Shown here: positions 11,701 through 50,328 of the stretch, one piece after another
Numbering within the stretch: position 1 is the stretch's first letter
Layout of the letters: the number at the start of each line of letters is the position of its first letter
Origin: a virus
Virus genome (UHGV): UHGV-0169486
DNA length: 50,405 nucleotides
Reading direction: 5' to 3' (one strand)
Notes under the pieces: generated by a model
Databases searched by the model: none
Told to the model about the DNA's origin: nothing
What the model saw: only the letters and a program-made list of their open reading frames with translations
Translations under genes and position numbers: made by a program

Positions 11701-12943
11701 ATTGCTCCCAGCCGTTTTCCGGGTCAGTCCAGGACACAATCACGGCGTTGTAGCATTCCGCGCGGGAGATACTCGATCGAGTGAACGCCCCGTCAACGAC
11801 GTTTGCGTTTGTAATGGTGGCGATCGGGTCTTGTGGTGCATCAATCATCACGGTGAGGCGTTGCCCGTCCCATAACGCGATGCCTCGGAACATCCCGGCG
11901 ATATTGTCCAGTAAGTCGCGGGCGCTCATCTGCTCCGTAATGTAAGCATTAAGCGTCATGCGAGGCTCAAGGCCGCCATAACCATCATCGACCAGCTGAT
12001 CGCAGTATTGAGAAAGCGTATATAATGCGCCGTCGTCAACGTCAATATAGCCAGCATGACGGGCAAGGCCGAAACGCCTGTTTTTAACCAGATAGCGGAA
12101 TATCCAGGCGGGGTTATTACTGTATGCCTGTTTGAATCCGCCAAGCCATAAACCGGAATAAGTGCGAGTTTCCGGGTTATAGTTATCAGGAACATCAACA
12201 ATCAGCCCGCGCAGGTGATAAGTGCGGGTAGGCGTGTCAGCGTACTGATCATGATCAATCACCGCGCCAGCTACAGCGGTGTGAGGATAAGACAAATTAT
12301 CGTCGATTATTTCGCTGTAACTACTCCATCTCGTATCATTCTGCAATAGATCGCTTGTGCTATCGGCTGTTACACGGCGAACGCGAATATCGAAAGGTCT
12401 TTCATTTGGAGCGTTAATGACATGAGATTCGAGATATTCGCCGCTCTGCTTACCCGGGCCGATGGTTACGCTTTTAGCCAGCGACCATGCCGAAAATGAG
12501 GATGGTTTAACTTCAATCGCCATCATTACGGATGTGTTATGTTGATTGCTTTGCTCGTCAGACTGCACAAGCGAATCCACGCCGATATTCAGGCGAACGC
12601 GGTTTACGTTAGGATCGGAAACAGTCCTGATTATTGGCGTGTCGTGAGTTACCTTAGCGTTAACAATAGTGGTTGATTCAATGCCGTTAAAACCGTTAAT
12701 CGGAGATTGATCTAACGTGCCGTTACGCCACGCCACACTAACACCATGAACGCTTGTATTTCCGTTTGCGTCAGTAACAGGCGTGTCATTAAGCATCACG
12801 CTATTTAATGGCGCTTTTGTATTGACAGGGCCATAAATCGGCCCTTCTGAAATAATATCGAGTACACGATAAAACTGTTTGTGATAAAGGTTATCGTTTA
12901 TTAATGTTGGTGTTTTTGCTTTACCACCGCCGCCGCTACTCAT
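8726..12943 (-). CDS. J: tail tip / central tail fiber protein (lambda J-like)
   Basis: N-terminal 400 aa recalled as similar to lambda J (ISEGPI, YHLRG, CTSRGQAHRAG); long coiled-coil middle; 1405 aa. Confidence 0.9.
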   Translation of the reverse strand: MSSGGGGKAKTPTLINDNLYHKQFYRVLDIISEGPIYGPVNTKAPLNSVMLNDTPVTDANGNTSVHGVSVAWRNGTLDQSPINGFNGIESTTIVNAKVTHDTPIIRTVSDPNVNRVRLNIGVDSLVQSDEQSNQHNTSVMMAIEVKPSSFSAWSLAKSVTIGPGKQSGEYLESHVINAPNERPFDIRVRRVTADSTSDLLQNDTRWSSYSEIIDDNLSYPHTAVAGAVIDHDQYADTPTRTYHLRGLIVDVPDNYNPETRTYSGLWLGGFKQAYSNNPAWIFRYLVKNRRFGLARHAGYIDVDDGALYTLSQYCDQLVDDGYGGLEPRMTLNAYITEQMSARDLLDNIAGMFRGIALWDGQRLTVMIDAPQDPIATITNANVVDGAFTRSSISRAECYNAVIVSWTDPENGWEQSKEYVADDELIARDGYNETTMEAFGCTSRGQAHRAGKWLIETAKREPSKFTFKMARDAIHFTPGDIIEILDNNRAGARLGGRIVANNGKVITVDKVDSEYIAAGDTISLLDSDGKFKKHQITGVNGNKITLAAAPAWIRNGTVFAVSTEAAKPVLCRITSVAETENNSVYTIEAAQHDPNKQAVVDEGAIFEINNDTLNHFRVPNIENLKVINIASETVQCRATWETQTTTHRMTFEIRIYNADGAVVKSYETTKYSYDFYGIEAGVYSLGVRGRNDTGMKGAESIVDLVIGAPAAPIGVNWVPGVFQATVYPISKTTLTTDTSYEFYYAGENQITDPAKITTSAQFTGRGYQWTFGGMNTGHTYYVYVRTRNAFGVSDFVEASGKPTEDFDEITDYVTKDVMESEQFKEMISDIKDLGDRTDIIESATNDLKSATDDLKAATDDLKADTDTLKKDTEDLYKKVEENADGIGKHEVRIDSLEVSNENVNNELAQTKASLQNASLALINNSLAQTNTRVTLTAQYKKGRNETKAQIDRIDNVIAEEKKATAESLETITAEINTMDSNIKGEIARVDKAMATETQARTEAISNVNASISSLENKTDASVSRLDKAISDEMQARSDAITEVKADLTTLENSTNASVSRLDQAIADESSARAQAISGISAELGLVENEVDKNSDEIDQAKASLQNASIALINNSIAQSKMSTVIEAKYRKGQTKTKAEIARVDTAIADETQARAEAIASLEANINENISAKITDISTALATHEASSAEKFVQISASFDDVNSSITEWSQAMTTADEALSTKIDQLKVTVNGNTTAIETTSKALTDFKGNVDASYSIKLATDNNGMKYATGMSLGLTGDGTNFQSQCIFLVDRFVLMTAANGTYQTPFYVQNGSCYIRDAWIKDATITSAKIAQQIQSSNYASGSAGWMINKDGRAEFNNVTVRGSVIVQGGGTFSMTRSDGRVILNNNGVRVNLPNGGVIILGYW
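9520..10240 (-). repeat. internal duplicated coiled-coil module within J gene
   Basis: Two protein segments KASLQNAS[LI]ALINNS[LI]AQ...AKY[KR]KG...TKA[QE]I about 185 aa apart, with matching nucleotide segments near 9540-9660 and 10100-10240; boundaries approximate. Confidence 0.5.
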
Positions 12944-14869: not shown

Positions 14870-14923
14870 TTTCTCACCTTGTCATTTTGTGATCTGCATC
14901 ACGCAAGATCATGCCAAAATGGA

Positions 14924-14952
14924 TTGATCCATATTTTTACAATATGTATATT
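14924..14952 (+). promoter_or_regulatory. sigma70-like promoter for plus-strand gene island A
   Basis: TTGATC - 17 nt - TATATT; overlaps conserved 14-mer TTTACAATATGTAT. Confidence 0.4.
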
Positions 14953-15216
14953 TTACTCAAACGAAGGGGAGTCAACAAAATGGCACAACTTTGAACAAGG
15001 TAGAACACTATGAGACCCGCAAAATACGCAGAGAAAGTTTTTGTTGAAGTGAAAGGCGACATGAAAAAATTTATGGATGTTCTTATCAAAGAGATGGGAA
15101 AACCGTTCCATATAGCCGAACGTCAGTATTACGCTTGCAAGGCTAATAGCTACAACAGATACGCATGACAATAAACACAAAGGTAACACCATGCAAAATA
15201 TCGTCTCGATGTATGG

Positions 15217-15543
15217 ATGGCAGGAAGTAAGGATTGGGAAGGTTACGGCTTGTATGATAGTCACGAAATGGCGATCGAGGAAGGTGAAAAACTTGTTCGA
15301 TTCTTCGGACGCGCCAGGGAATTTAAAATCATTCCAGTACAAATAGCGGATAAGGTGGAAGATATGAACCCGAAAGATATTAATGTTAACTTCAATGTTA
15401 ATTTTGCCAACTCTATGGATCAGGCTTGTCCTAGTGAAATACACGTAAAAGGTTTCCCGGCAGATGATCCGCAAGCAAAACGTGAATACGAAAAAGCGGC
15501 AAAAGATTTCTGTATCGACAACCTGGGAGCGTTCGGCAAATAA
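15217..15543 (+). CDS. hypothetical acidic protein (island A)
   Basis: ORF track; protein-like composition unlike the overlapping 224-aa antisense ORF; weak RBS. Confidence 0.4.
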   Translation: MAGSKDWEGYGLYDSHEMAIEEGEKLVRFFGRAREFKIIPVQIADKVEDMNPKDINVNFNVNFANSMDQACPSEIHVKGFPADDPQAKREYEKAAKDFCIDNLGAFGK

Positions 15544-15552
15544 GGTGGCAAT

Positions 15553-15801
15553 ATGACGCGGCGCAATCACGGTGACTATGTGTACACGTTGAAACAGGCC
15601 GCCCGCCTTATCGGTTATCATGAGCACGAATTTATTGATTTGCTGATTGAGCGCGGGGTTTTGTACCAGGTCTGTTTAACGCTGTACCCAAAAGCGAAAT
15701 ACCTACAGGAAAAGTTATTCATCATCATGACGGATGAAAACCAGGTAAACCATTCATTCGTCACTGATAAGGGATTGACATATTTGAAGGGGGCGTTATG
15801 A
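15553..15801 (+). CDS. hypothetical HTH-like small protein (island A)
   Basis: ORF track; AAGGTGG RBS; segment YTLKQAARLIGYHEHEFIDLLIERGVLY resembles a DNA-binding HTH. Confidence 0.5.
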   Translation: MTRRNHGDYVYTLKQAARLIGYHEHEFIDLLIERGVLYQVCLTLYPKAKYLQEKLFIIMTDENQVNHSFVTDKGLTYLKGAL

Positions 15802-15870
15802 GATGTGCGAACATTACGTTCTGGAGGTGATTATTATCATTATTGGATTGTTATGCATTCTGCTATCGAC

Positions 15871-15900
15871 ACTATAAACCCCGCTTCGCGCGGGGTCGTG
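15871..15900. terminator. hairpin terminator between island A and the convergent minus-strand gene
   Basis: CCCCGC-ttcgc-GCGGGG hairpin with flanking T-rich runs on both strands. Confidence 0.45.
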
Positions 15901-16454: not shown

Positions 16455-16624
16455 ACCCCCTCCTGTAAGTTACATTTTGTATATATCTTTACGCACTTCT
16501 ACGCGAAAAATGAGATATTCGACACAAGAATTATAGCCAATTTACAATATGTATTCACACACGAAGCAACAAGCTGTATACAGGAAGCAAGAAGAAAAGC
16601 GGTACCAGCAAGTGAGGCCCAAAA

Positions 16625-20014: not shown

Positions 20015-20164
20015 GATTTAACCTCATGCAAATGTGATCTATGCATCTATTTTATACAAAATGTCTTTACTTTAACGATACCGTTTTGTATAAATGATGT
20101 AGGGAAAGATAGAAGAGATGCAGGAAGGACGGATGTCCCGGAGGAAGTGAAAGAGGATAAGGAA

Positions 20165-41579: not shown

Positions 41580-41676
41580 TTTTGTTTGCTTGAAGTATAC
41601 AAAACGGATGCGCCAGAACAAGGCGAAAAGCGCCATTATGTGATGCATATCACGCTATGACGCCATTTTGTAAACT

Positions 41677-43971: not shown

Positions 43972-44069
43972 CTTGTTTTCTCCGCGCCGTAAACCTTTCG
44001 ATTTCTTCTTACAAAACGGATATGCGATCACAGCACAAAATGTATATTTATGTGATCGCGATCACCCTG

Positions 44070-47454: not shown

Positions 47455-47484
47455 AATGTCACCTTTGAAAGTTTACATTTTGTA

Positions 47485-47775
47485 TTATCTGTAGCGTACT
47501 TTATCCAGGGGTTTTTCCCCTAGACTACGCGGTTGTGTTGCGTGGTAGTAATTGCCGCTTTCGTTTTCCGCATACCATTTTGCCGCACCTTTGCGATGCT
47601 CTTTAATGCCATTCGGTTTGCATCTTTCTACGTTTGCAAAACGAATAGCTTTATCAACATTGTCAGTTTTATTGATTGCAGGTGATGATTTTCTTTCGTT
47701 TTCTCTTTTTATTCTTCTGCGTTCCCTGGCATTTATTTTGCTATCACATTTGCCATACATAATTGTTACGGTCAT
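47485..47775 (-). CDS. N-like transcription antitermination protein (arginine-rich motif)
   Basis: First gene downstream of PL-like promoter and boxA/boxB; ARM-like NARERRRIKRENERK; AAGGAG RBS. Confidence 0.55.
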   Translation of the reverse strand: MTVTIMYGKCDSKINARERRRIKRENERKSSPAINKTDNVDKAIRFANVERCKPNGIKEHRKGAAKWYAENESGNYYHATQPRSLGEKPLDKVRYR

Positions 47776-47831
47776 AATCTGATCTCCTTATATCCCATGA
47801 TGATACTTAATAAAAATCATCTTCATTAATT

Positions 47832-47869
47832 GCCGCACTTCCAGCGGCTGACCAGATTGTTAAAGAGCA
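47832..47869 (-). promoter_or_regulatory. nutL-like site (boxA TGCTCTTTAACAA plus boxB-like hairpin)
   Basis: boxA matches recalled rrn/lambda boxA consensus; hairpin GCCGC-TGGAAGT-GCGGC; between PL-like promoter and N-like gene. Confidence 0.6.
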
Positions 47870-47911
47870 AGTAACCTTCTTTCCCCTGCCTTGCTACCTC
47901 CTTTGCCTCGA

Positions 47912-47940
47912 AATATACGCCCCGTGATACACCGAGTCAA
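47912..47940 (-). promoter_or_regulatory. PL-like sigma70 promoter
   Basis: TTGACT - 17 nt - TATATT on minus strand; TATCACG operator-like half-site within spacer. Confidence 0.65.
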
Positions 47941-48029
47941 TCCATTTTGTATACTTTTTTAAATATTTTATATGTCATTGATATTTAAATAATAAAACAC
48001 GTTTTATGTTTACGTTTTGGTGTTTTCAG

Positions 48030-48058
48030 GGCAAAGAAAAGCCGCCATTCGGCGGCTA
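48030..48058 (-). terminator. rho-independent terminator downstream of repressor gene
   Basis: GCCGCC-attc-GGCGGC hairpin with T-run on minus strand. Confidence 0.55.
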
Positions 48059-48063
48059 ATTTT

Positions 48064-48675
48064 TTATGGCAGGTTTACGATCTTCGCGTCCACCACCACG
48101 CCTATGATTTTCGATTCAGGATTCATGGGGATTGGTGGATACAGCGGGTTAAGCGAACGTAAAAGCCTTTGACCTCCATCAATAATCAACTGTTTAAACG
48201 TCGGTATTTGCCCTTCCTCAAGCTGTGCTATAACCAGCTTTCCATCGATAGCTGGCGCGTGTGGGTCAACAAGTATCATCGTCCCGGCAGGGATGCTCAA
48301 CCCCTGCGGCGCGTTCATTGATTCACCTTTAGCAACCAGCCAGTAACTATCATCTGAACAAATAACGCTAGTCGTAACGTGTGGTAATGTTGATCGCCTT
48401 GTATCTTCCATATTGTTTACTGTGTCCTTCCAGTCAACAACCGGGTAACTGCCTAAATCACGCTGCGGCGCTCCCGGTAACGTGTTAGAAACAGAATCAT
48501 CAATGACCATTCCATCATGGGTAACAGTGAACTGCCGACGACCAAGTGCCCGCATAATCCGCGCAATATCTTCAAGATTTGGCTCGCGGCGACCGTTAAG
48601 CCAGTGTGACAGGCCGCCTTTAGTTATCCCCATGAGATCCGCGAGTGAATCCTGGCTCATGCCTTGCGCTCGCAT
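48064..48675 (-). CDS. CI-like repressor (HTH plus LexA/S24 peptidase domain); 5' end possibly frameshifted
   Basis: HTH SQDSLADLMGITKGGLSHWLNG; S24 region with GESM and Lys; annotated ATG lacks RBS and truncates helix 1. Confidence 0.7.
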   Translation of the reverse strand: MRAQGMSQDSLADLMGITKGGLSHWLNGRREPNLEDIARIMRALGRRQFTVTHDGMVIDDSVSNTLPGAPQRDLGSYPVVDWKDTVNNMEDTRRSTLPHVTTSVICSDDSYWLVAKGESMNAPQGLSIPAGTMILVDPHAPAIDGKLVIAQLEEGQIPTFKQLIIDGGQRLLRSLNPLYPPIPMNPESKIIGVVVDAKIVNLP

Positions 48676-48874
48676 GAGCTGCTTTGCTAAGTCATACCAT
48701 TTGTTTTCATGTCGCTACCCTATAACCTCAAAAGTTTGATACAAGTCACAAAATGTATTTTTCAAAGCCTTGATTTAAAAACTCCATTCTGTAAACTTGC
48801 AGACAAGGTAAGGCCATAGTTGCAAAGACGCAAAAAAAAAGATAACGGAATAGCACAAAAAGGCGCATACCTCA

Positions 48875-48908
48875 TGCTCTTTAAAAATCCGGTGTCGCTG
48901 CGAAGCGA
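48875..48908 (+). promoter_or_regulatory. nutR-like site (boxA TGCTCTTTAAAAA plus hairpin TCGCT-GCGA-AGCGA)
   Basis: boxA-like sequence and tetraloop hairpin in PR leader, upstream of first rightward gene. Confidence 0.5.
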
Positions 48909-49017
48909 AAAACAAATATCACGCAACGGCGGGATCTGTTGAGCGGTCAGTCACTGCTATCTAATGCTAATGGGATGCCCGCCCGCGCGTTCACTCTAAC
49001 CATAGGAGAAAAACAAG

Positions 49018-49272
49018 ATGAGTATGCACATGATGAATGAAGCATGGAACGTAAAACTTAACAGCCCGATCCAAAAACTTGTCTTAATTGCGTTTGCAGA
49101 AAAGGCAGACAACAAAGGCCGCGCACATGCTTCACGCGAAGAGATCGCAAAAGTGTGCGAACTGCCACTGCATACTACTGTTGACGCATTAAATTCATTG
49201 ATCCGCAAAGGATTCATTAAACGCGCTGACGAATACGGCGACATTTATGACATTGCATTGCCGGAGGAATGA
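49018..49272 (+). CDS. winged-helix DNA-binding protein, first gene of rightward operon
   Basis: ORF track; AGGAG RBS; winged-helix-like segment. Confidence 0.6.
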   Translation: MSMHMMNEAWNVKLNSPIQKLVLIAFAEKADNKGRAHASREEIAKVCELPLHTTVDALNSLIRKGFIKRADEYGDIYDIALPEE

Positions 49273-49275
49273 TCT

Positions 49276-50328
49276 ATGAAATGGTTTAAGCATGATAGCG
49301 ATGCAAACCGCGATGAAAAACTTCAAAACGTTTTATTAGATTATGGCCTGGAAGGGTACGGGCTTTATTGGTATTGCCTAGAACTAATAACTTATGACGT
49401 AGATCAGCACAATCTAACTTTTGACCTACGACATGACGCAAGAATAATTGCGCGAAACGTCGGATCTACTGAAAAACGTATAGAAGAAATGATGAAATAC
49501 TTCATCGAAATTGGTTTGTTTGAATGTTCTCAAGGCCACATAACTTGTTTAAAGTTATTGAAAAGGCTGGACCAATCAATGACTTCTAAAAGCGCTTACA
49601 GGGCCGCCATAAACACAGCGAAGGAGCAATTAACATTAGAAAAGTTAATCAATCCAACACAAAAAGGTCATGACCGGGTCATGACCAGGTCAGGAAAGGG
49701 TCATGAATTAGAATTAGAAGTAGAAAAAGAAAGAGAAAAAGATATATACACTTCGTGTATTGTCGAAAATGAACAAAAAATGGTCAATCAGGATGGCGTA
49801 AACGAAGCGGCATTGCGTTGCCTGGCCTTCTACAACGACAAGGCAGGATGCAAATGTCGTGATGCTAAGCCATTCGTAGAACTACTGACAGAAACAAAAA
49901 CACGTAAAGCGTATACGGAGGATGAGATCACATTAGTGATTGAGTGGGCTTTAACGCAATGGCGTAGCCGTGGTGGAACACCTAAGCCTATCAACATTTG
50001 CCGGGTAACTAAGTTTGATGGGTATTTGGCTGATGCTGAACAATGGCGCAAGCTATCAGCTACTGTAAACGCCGCCGACGTAGTGGAAGCATTTAACAGC
50101 ACGTTTGATGGCCTGTTACCACCTGCTGAACTTGATCGGGATCTGGAACGTAAAATTTATGCGTTCTCTGACTACCTGAAAGATAAAAGCGTCAAAGGCT
50201 TTATCAGCTACTTCGAAGCGTTCAAAAATACGGCCTCAGATTTTTACTTCGGCAATGGCTTCACTGCGACACTAGATTTCTTACTAAAACCAAAAACGCT
50301 ACGCGACACCCGCGCTGGCGCTCTTTGA
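49276..50328 (+). CDS. replication initiator / replisome organizer
   Basis: N-terminal WFKHD...GLEGYGLYWYCLEL motif typical of phage replisome-organizer N-domain; iterons plus AT-rich tract inside gene. Confidence 0.75.
   Translation: MKWFKHDSDANRDEKLQNVLLDYGLEGYGLYWYCLELITYDVDQHNLTFDLRHDARIIARNVGSTEKRIEEMMKYFIEIGLFECSQGHITCLKLLKRLDQSMTSKSAYRAAINTAKEQLTLEKLINPTQKGHDRVMTRSGKGHELELEVEKEREKDIYTSCIVENEQKMVNQDGVNEAALRCLAFYNDKAGCKCRDAKPFVELLTETKTRKAYTEDEITLVIEWALTQWRSRGGTPKPINICRVTKFDGYLADAEQWRKLSATVNAADVVEAFNSTFDGLLPPAELDRDLERKIYAFSDYLKDKSVKGFISYFEAFKNTASDFYFGNGFTATLDFLLKPKTLRDTRAGAL
49666..49755 (+). other. putative origin of replication (iterons plus AT-rich region)
   Basis: Four GGTCATGA-type repeats at exact 11-bp spacing (49666, 49677, 49688, 49699) followed by AT-rich tract, inside initiator gene. 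Confidence 0.6.

Follow-up and report, generated by a model that had tools for sequence, protein, structure and literature searches.

The virus genome UHGV-0169486, analysed here as one stretch of 50,405 nucleotides (nt; the window, to which all coordinates refer), encodes Rep, a homologue of the lambda repressor cI, and carries close to the start of rep a 16-mer that resembles a binding site for the cyclic AMP (cAMP) receptor protein CRP. This element, TGTGA-CTTGTA-TCAAA (48735-48750, minus strand, centre 48742.5; TTTGATACAAGTCACA on the plus strand), departs at a single core position from TGTGA-N6-TCACA, the hallmark of CRP in Escherichia coli. We tentatively read it as a functional CRP site that would stimulate an early promoter and compete with Rep at the rep promoter; CRP binding is predicted, and we put the chances of this reading slightly below even. 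A purely phage-internal explanation, in which the resemblance is incidental to a Rep operator and a promoter, is nearly as likely. We favour the CRP reading because the site scores highly, such sites are enriched both in the window and in the related phage mEp021, three paralogous sites are under selection, the geometry relative to the early promoter is lac-like, and the invariant TCAAA half lies outside the operator.

If CRP does bind here and at the three stronger sites described below, the region would be a compact case in which a metabolic regulator of the host is overlaid on a cI-type switch, and would provide a direct molecular route from carbon status to the lysis-lysogeny decision and to prophage induction in the gut. 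Should CRP fail to bind, what remains is an ordinary operator and promoter. The analysis also yields an operator consensus, a model of a rep promoter resembling lambda PRM, and a candidate CRP-controlled antirepressor cassette.

Score, enrichment and conservation of the CRP-type site

Judged from its sequence, the window is a mEp021-like (mEpimmI) temperate coliphage. The region around the CRP-type site shares about 90% identity with Escherichia phages mEp021 and mEp515 and with their relatives; with phage MagusPhagus the figure is 95%. Prophages matching this region are present in 35 of 5426 complete E. coli genomes. The initial annotation had placed the 16-mer on the minus strand at 48735-48750, where we find it, and had counted matches to the CRP consensus at 8 of 10 positions. 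The core in fact matches at 9 of 10, the sole mismatch being TCAAA for TCACA. The distance given at the time, 40-55 nt upstream of the repressor start, fits neither of the two possible starts, which lie 25-40 nt (ATG at 48710) and 60-75 nt (ATG at 48675) away. The reported overlap with a copy of CATTTTGT (48748-48755, minus strand) is real, and that copy, which had been called diverged, is exact.

To score the site we used a symmetrised CRP matrix of 16 columns, derived from the 107 in vivo sites in Table 1 of a CRP chromatin immunoprecipitation sequencing (ChIP-seq) study of enterotoxigenic E. coli (PMC4287617). The site reaches 13.8 bits in the window and 14.55 bits in the version that most relatives carry, TGTGACTTGCATCAAA. 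In a leave-one-out comparison 64% of the 107 ChIP-seq sites score below the window site, so the proposal of a CRP-like site in the repressor promoter region survives, and the site is stronger than originally noted. Among the same 107 sites, 39 have one core mismatch and 42 have two. At the position mismatched here the base most often substituted is T (21 of 214 half-sites), and a TTTGA half occurs in 7 sites, 3 of which combine it with a perfect TGTGA half. The naked site would probably be bound by CRP in vitro, because ChIP-bound sites above 13.8 bits are, by a rough estimate, about as numerous as chance predicts genome-wide.

Sites of this quality are over-represented. A first-order Markov model predicts 0.27 sites of at least 13.8 bits in the window, which contains 5; the maximum in 200 simulations was 2. 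Matches to TGTGA-N6-TCACA with at most one mismatch number 6, with 1.1 expected. The mEp021 genome (49.7 kb) has 5 sites at or above the threshold against 0.45 expected, and the window's same four are among its five best. The window also contains a CRP-like sequence inside a coding sequence (GGTGATGTGCTTCACA, 13.9 bits, 927-942, within the open reading frame (ORF) at 399-1532), and the mEp021 record contains one inside gp16, a gene absent from the window (AGTGAGCAAGGTCACA, 15.4 bits, 12164-12179 of that record).

To assess conservation we aligned 29 distinct upstream regions, taken from mEp021, mEp515 and IMG/VR contigs. Every one of the ten core columns of the CRP-type site is invariant and two of its six spacer columns vary, within a surrounding 160 nt in which 34% of columns vary. 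The probability that ten columns named in this way are all invariant is about 0.016, and only one other place in the 160-nt stretch passes the same 5-N6-5 invariance test. In the diverged groups introduced below, the CRP-like core is lost in part or wholly. RNA folding of the site region gave no significant hairpin (-3.4 and -1.8 kcal/mol, z about +0.5), and an RNA hairpin or terminator at the site was ruled out, the fold being no better than that of shuffled sequence.

The putative Rep operator and the two predicted promoters

The TGTGA half of the CRP-type site shares 4 nt with an operator-like 11-mer, TACATTTTGTG (48747-48757, minus strand), of the pattern TAC-N5-G(G/T)(A/G). The same 11-mer core is contained in a 16-mer, TCCRTTYTGTAWACTT (motif A), of which a perfect copy (47941-47956) abuts the -35 element of the minus-strand early promoter. 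A copy with one to two changes, TCCATTCTGTAAACTT (48783-48798, plus strand), overlaps the spacer and the -10 element of the predicted divergent early promoter and is kept in relatives; for a putative operator this is a repressing position. Further copies lie at 41593-41608 and 41662-41675, and the exact 8-mer CATTTTGT occurs 13 times in the window against 3.6 expected.

Rep itself has helix-turn-helix (HTH) and S24 peptidase domains, and a PDB search matched it to lambda repressor (3bdn, E 1.6e-18). Two groups of more distant relatives proved informative about the sequence it may recognise. In one (P0008; Rep 55% identical, phage-sized contigs, a divergent Cro-like gene) the recognition helix, ITKGGLSHWLNG, is identical to that of the window Rep, and in the other (P0012; Rep 50% identical, Citrobacter prophages) it is near-identical, ITQGGLGHWLNG. 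In both diverged groups the rep-cro intergenic region has 2-3 copies of TAC-N5-G(G/T)(A/G), and the control region downstream of rep has one or more. Because the motif recurs in diverged groups whose repressors share the recognition helix, we infer that motif A is the Rep operator, to which Rep is predicted to bind. The view that motif A is a promoter element only was rejected: several copies lack a sensible -35 element or downstream gene, and the operator reading fits better with the diverged relatives.

Operator-like sequences are also present elsewhere. One copy (48407-48422) sits within rep itself, and more copies of TCCRTTYTGTAWAC or CATTTTGT are found at, for example, 1521-1534, 16471-16484, 20052-20065, 20080-20093 and 47474-47487; the extra copies lie mostly in short intergenic regions, some of them within the late operon. 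The minus-strand early promoter (47912-47940) has an unconserved spacer and a single recognisable operator, which abuts the -35 element and is centred at about -41, an activating-type and not a repressing position. The motif there (47941-47956) also holds a plus-strand -10-like TATACT, pointing to a terminator at 48040-48057.

The predicted rep promoter overlaps the CRP-type site. Its putative -35 element, TTGTAT (48739-48744, minus strand), falls in the spacer between the two CRP-type halves, and was placed from a layout that recurs in three groups, the window group and the two diverged ones: operator, AC, TTGNNN, 16-17 nt, a weak -10 element, 6-7 nt, and the A of the ATG. TTGNNN reads TTGTAT in the window and TTGCAT in close relatives, the other variants being TTGAAT and TTGTTC. 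The predicted -10 element, TAGGGT (48717-48722, minus strand), is separated by 6 nt from the A of the ATG at 48710 and by 16 nt from the -35 element (17 nt in relatives), and lies in a stretch, ATAGGGTAGCGA, that is invariant in relatives. Its counterparts are TAGGAT followed by 6 nt in the 55%-identical group (compared through L229) and AATAAT followed by 7 nt in the Citrobacter group.

Lambda PRM is weak, yields a leaderless transcript and is activated from an operator whose centre lies at -42. The rep promoter would likewise be weak, leaderless and PRM-like, with both promoter and start site predicted: relative to that start, the operator centre (48752) is at -42 and the CRP-type centre at -32.5, over the predicted -35 element. 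Since the CRP-type centre lies atop the -35 element, CRP should be unable to activate rep in either classical mode and would instead hinder its transcription. The action on the rep promoter from upstream that had been implied at the outset is not borne out, the site covering the -35 element itself. Several other arrangements were discarded. TTGTAT paired with TATAGG leaves a spacer of only 14-15 nt, and TATAGG was replaced by TAGGGT; the candidates TTGAAA-18-TATCAA and TTTAAA-16-TACATT were dropped, as their key bases change in relatives; and a class II model with CRP at -41.5 of rep would place the start within the coding sequence. Further upstream, a direct repeat, TTGC-GTCT-TTGC (48822-48833, minus strand), has both TTGC elements invariant in relatives and a variable interior. 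Lambda CII-type activator sites have the form TTGC-N6-TTGC; the repeat resembles them, with N4 spacing, and could mark a rep establishment promoter.

On the opposite strand, the predicted early promoter consists of a -35 element TTGATT (48770-48775), a 16-nt spacer and a -10 element TAAACT (48792-48797), with a start near 48804. It would serve nutL, a small HTH gene and the replication genes, and its -10 element is embedded in the operator copy at 48783-48798. In relatives the -35 element reads TTGATC or TTGACC, and the -10 element is invariant. From the CRP-type centre to the first base of this -10 element there are 49.5 nt in the window and 48.5 nt in relatives, which would place the site at -61.5 and -60.5, respectively, of the predicted start. 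This is the only classical activating geometry present. At lac P1 the CRP site is at -61.5, in class I position, 49.5 nt upstream of the first -10 base.

Taken together, these features suggest a composite element. The TGTGA half would come from the right arm of the Rep operator TACATTTTGTG, the spacer would hold the rep -35 element TTGTAT, and the whole 16-mer would form a moderately strong cAMP-CRP site, a weaker counterpart of three conserved palindromes. CRP would occupy the site at high cAMP when there is little or no Rep, for instance upon infection or once Rep has been cleaved. From about -61.5 it would stimulate the divergent early promoter, and with it nutL and the replication genes, in lac-type class I geometry, and would simultaneously keep RNA polymerase and Rep off the rep promoter. 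Rep on the overlapping operator would, in a lysogen, exclude CRP.

Three stronger CRP-consensus palindromes

The three top matrix matches in the window are all intergenic and are near-perfect counterparts of the CRP consensus: TGTGATCTGCATCACG (14888-14903, plus strand, 18.7 bits), CGTGATATGCATCACA (TGTGATGCATATCACG; 41639-41654, minus strand, 17.3 bits, in the nutR2 region) and GGTGATCGCGATCACA (TGTGATCGCGATCACC; 44051-44066, minus strand, 17.1 bits). In about 40 relatives the nutR2-region palindrome keeps the form (C/T)GTGAT-N5-TCACA with at least 15 different centres, and the palindrome at 14.9 kb the form CGTGA(C/T)-N4-ATCACA with about ten different centres; the one at 44 kb is mostly retained, with some core changes. 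Fixed pentamers around a freely varying centre are expected of a site for a CRP-type protein.

All three palindromes sit 17-20 nt upstream of the -35 element of related promoters that contain a putative Rep operator. The palindrome at 41.6 kb lies 17 nt upstream of TTGTTC, which is followed by a 16-nt spacer, TATACT and the nutR2 boxA; two operator-like 11-mers (44034-44044 and 44010-44020) follow the palindrome at 44 kb. The modules at 48.7, 41.6 and 44 kb share one order of parts: a CRP-type 16-mer, 17-19 nt, a -35 element, a spacer of 15 or 16 nt, and a -10 element inside the putative operator, TCCRTTYTGTA.... The modules at 48.7 and 41.6 kb have TAWACT as the -10 element; the one at 44 kb has TAAGAA in the window and TAAACT in relatives. 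By this common arrangement the three modules look paralogous. In the 41.6 and 44 kb modules, 47.5 nt separate the CRP-type centre from the first -10 base. In addition, the junction TCACA(A/T)AATG recurs at 14.9, 41.6 and 48.7 kb.

Other roles for the palindromes fit less well. As Rep operators they were rejected, as none overlaps either early promoter and none lies in the control region downstream of rep. As terminators they were rejected too: a terminator scan called none at the palindromes, including the one at 41.6 kb, and the arms are conserved in sequence at three unrelated loci. RNA hairpins at the 14.9 and 44 kb palindromes are not significant. The 41.6 kb region has a moderate fold (-16.7 kcal/mol, z -2.3); in the mEp021 record the nutR2 palindrome is listed as a predicted terminator, TERM_4.

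The palindrome at 14.9 kb precedes a promoter, TTGATC-17-TATATT (14924-14952, plus strand), that the promoter scan called and whose -35 element is abutted by the operator-like CCAAAATGGA. This promoter opens a moron cassette (14924-15900, plus strand; ORFs 15010-15168, 15217-15543 and 15553-15801) on the opposite strand to the tail operon in which it lies. The last of its ORFs (15553-15801) matches the antirepressor KilAC domain with 27.8 bits, and mEp021 has the corresponding cassette as gp74 to gp71, where gp71 is annotated 'putative antirepressor'. A terminator-like hairpin lies at the cassette end (15878-15896), and a minus-strand ORF of 224 amino acids opposite the cassette (14953-15627) looks spurious.

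It is conceivable, and to us rather doubtful, that mEpimmI phages wire cAMP-CRP into immunity through four composite promoters in which a CRP site adjoins or overlaps a Rep operator. The four would be the promoter of the early replication genes beside rep, the one that precedes nutR2, the one at 44 kb, and that of the moron cassette ending in the antirepressor gene. In such a scheme, Rep and CRP would compete, and the carbon status of the host would govern the firing of early genes and of the antirepressor upon infection or a drop in Rep; it would thereby bias lysogenisation and induction in the gut.

Alternative explanations, genetic setting and known systems

The strongest competitor of the CRP reading requires nothing beyond the phage. 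On this account an OR2-like Rep operator at -42, the rep -35 element and its spacer make up the site, the CRP likeness being a by-product of the GTG arm of the operator and an A-rich spacer, and CRP has no role here; we consider this a serious possibility that falls a little short of the CRP reading. TAC-N5-GKR occurs at both early control regions of the window and two to three times in the rep-cro regions of the two diverged groups with the same or a near-identical recognition helix, and the layout of operator, AC, TTGNNN, spacer, -10 element and ATG common to three groups mirrors lambda OR2/PRM. Several further observations weigh against a role for CRP. Operator and -35 element by themselves would fix 12 of the 16 positions, and a match at 3 of the 4 free ones would arise by chance with a probability of about 0.05. 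The left half of the site belongs to a longer invariant block, ATTTTGTGACTTG, that exceeds a CRP half-site; as this block is accounted for by operator and -35 element, only TCAAA needs another explanation, and invariance of its five columns, expected by chance with a probability of about 0.13, is weak evidence. At the homologous position Citrobacter-type relatives read TACAAAATGGAACTTGTTCAAAA, in which ACTTGT..CAAA is kept and the CRP-like left half is missing, and the 55%-identical group has a weaker site (8 of 10, 11.2 bits). The core mismatch falls at the G contacted by Arg180 of CRP. The early promoter matches consensus at 8 of 12 positions and its start site is predicted; the distance from CRP-type centre to -10 element differs among modules, from 47.5 to 51.5 nt; and the description of mEpimmI does not mention CRP (PMC11893012). 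The phage-internal account is itself strained by the score, which is high for an accident when 0.27 such sites are expected per 50 kb, by the fusion TCACA(A/T)AATG, which appears also at two sites where a full CRP palindrome is clearly under selection, and by the position of the site, which is that of the palindromes in their modules. By a rough estimate, moreover, a site of such quality would probably be occupied by CRP in vivo when Rep is absent.

A different protein, of phage or host, could also underlie the CRP likeness, binding the three palindromes through GTGA-N6-TCAC specificity and the CRP-type site more weakly. Such a protein would explain why all four sites share an asymmetric 3' extension, TCACA(A/T)AA, usually followed by TG, that lies outside the CRP consensus, and why the strong sites do not conserve the initial T of TGTGA. 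The extension is, however, explained by the overlapping operator-like motif, the first half-site base varies in real CRP sites, for which TGTGA-N6-TCACA is the hallmark, and no candidate protein was found; we regard this possibility, which would also count against CRP, as improbable. An FNR site or a mixed CRP/FNR site, with anaerobiosis rather than cAMP as the signal, is much less probable still. The plus strand reads TTGAT-ACAA-GTCAC, matching TTGAT-N4-ATCAA at 8 of 10 positions with a perfect TTGAT half (TTTGAT), and the T at the mismatched position is what sets FNR sites apart from CRP sites. The other half, GTCAC, is nevertheless of pure CRP type (GTGAC), so that the site has one of the two halves that FNR needs, and the three paralogous palindromes are purely of CRP type. 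Least probable of all is a site for IHF at TATCAAACTTTTG (48729-48741, minus strand). The window matches the IHF core consensus, WATCAANNNNTTR, exactly, but that consensus carries little information and in nearly all relatives the sequence is CATCAAACTTTTT..., where a T-to-C change and an additional T produce two mismatches; the match being absent from nearly all relatives, the IHF site was rejected.

The mEpimmI phages are Nus-dependent, non-lambdoid phages recently described as prevalent gut coliphages, found in the original collection at a frequency equal to that of lambdoid phages (PMC11893012). In the published gene order, rep is gp15 and has nutL upstream, nutR1 precedes gp17, and nutR2 follows the methyltransferase gene; Rep021 confers immunity, and no operator has been defined (PMC11893012). 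In the window, ssb, erf, gp18 and gp17 (an N-like antiterminator) follow one another on the minus strand, next to the nutR1 boxA (47857-47869) and the strong early promoter TTGACT-17-TATATT (47940-47912, minus strand) that would drive nutR1 and gp17. The segment between this promoter and gp17 (47780-47900) is mosaic: about one third of relatives carry the window's version, the remainder differ in sequence and have an additional small gene (mEp021 gp16), and both versions keep the nutR1 boxA. Beyond it lie the terminator at 48040-48057, which is bidirectional, and the rep ORF as present in the window (48064-48675, minus strand, 203 amino acids).

Between rep and the small HTH gene (49018-49272, plus strand), which is followed by a replication gene (49276-50328, plus strand), is an intergenic region of 307 nt (48711-49017). 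It contains a boxA, TGCTCTTTAAAAA (48875-48887, plus strand), and a boxB-like hairpin, TCGCTGCGAAGCGA (48895-48908, plus strand), in agreement with the published placement of nutL upstream of rep gp15 (PMC11893012). Rfam matched no family anywhere in the window. The gap also holds a GC-rich inverted repeat (48921-48933 and 48978-48990). In the window group it carries nutL and there is no cro-like gene between rep and the replication genes; relatives with a 55%-identical Rep (compared through L229, 2377-2500) have a Cro-like HTH gene of 75 amino acids only 124 nt from rep.

As it reads in the window, rep is frameshifted after its ancestral start. Every relative uses the ATG at 48708-48710 (within 48697-48710, minus strand), from which the repressor extends for 215 amino acids with the N-terminus MKTKWYDLAKQL. 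The start region reads ATGAAAACAAAATGG in all 29 distinct relatives and ATGAAAACAAATGG in the window, where a 1-nt deletion has shortened an A-run from AAAA to AAA (48700-48702), a change unique among 30 distinct sequences. The deletion frameshifts the first 12 rep codons, and the frame opened by the ancestral ATG now reads MKTNGMT and stops after these seven codons. The long rep ORF restarts at the first in-frame ATG, at 48675, and lacks both the N-terminal arm and the greater part of HTH helix 1. The deletion either is genuine and inactivates the repressor, as in a phage that forms clear plaques or is decaying, or is a sequencing error. A scan of genome contigs with Rep found no relative.

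Among known systems, the control region of the window resembles that of mEp021 and other mEpimmI phages, with which it shares an identical order of rep, nutL, nutR1 and nutR2. In the published description operators and promoters are undefined and CRP goes unmentioned (PMC11893012), whereas both are proposed here. In the literature within our reach, we found no description of a cI-type operator overlaid by a CRP-type site within a region resembling PR/PRM.

An influence of cAMP on lysogeny by lambda and P22 is classical. In phage T1, cAMP-CRP directly represses the pir promoter, which controls lysis, as shown in cyaA mutants and in vitro (PMC6737242). The likeness to the window lies in a host CRP acting directly on a coliphage lysis-lysogeny promoter, an action that is here predicted only; the predicted direction, although uncertain, is the opposite one, with early lytic functions favoured.

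The proposed activation of the early promoter has its closest parallel in lac P1, which shares with the window a two-fold site with one core mismatch (TGTGA-N6-TCACT in lac) and the distance of 49.5 nt. The early promoter of the window is weak (8 of 12), as expected of an activator-dependent promoter, and because of this modest match the promoter scan did not call it. It differs from lac P1 in that its CRP site is predicted, overlaps a phage operator and the -35 element of a divergent promoter, and in relatives is 1 nt closer.

Lambda OR, which is not known to contain a CRP site, provides the parallel for the switch itself. Both regions combine a cI-type repressor with divergent early and repressor promoters, an operator at about -42 of a weak leaderless promoter, and an operator over the early -10 element. 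The window operator, TAC-N5-GKR, is unrelated in sequence to that of lambda, only two copies of it are recognised, and there is no cro; the window has an intergenic region of 307 nt that carries a nut site and, superimposed on the putative operator, the CRP-type site.

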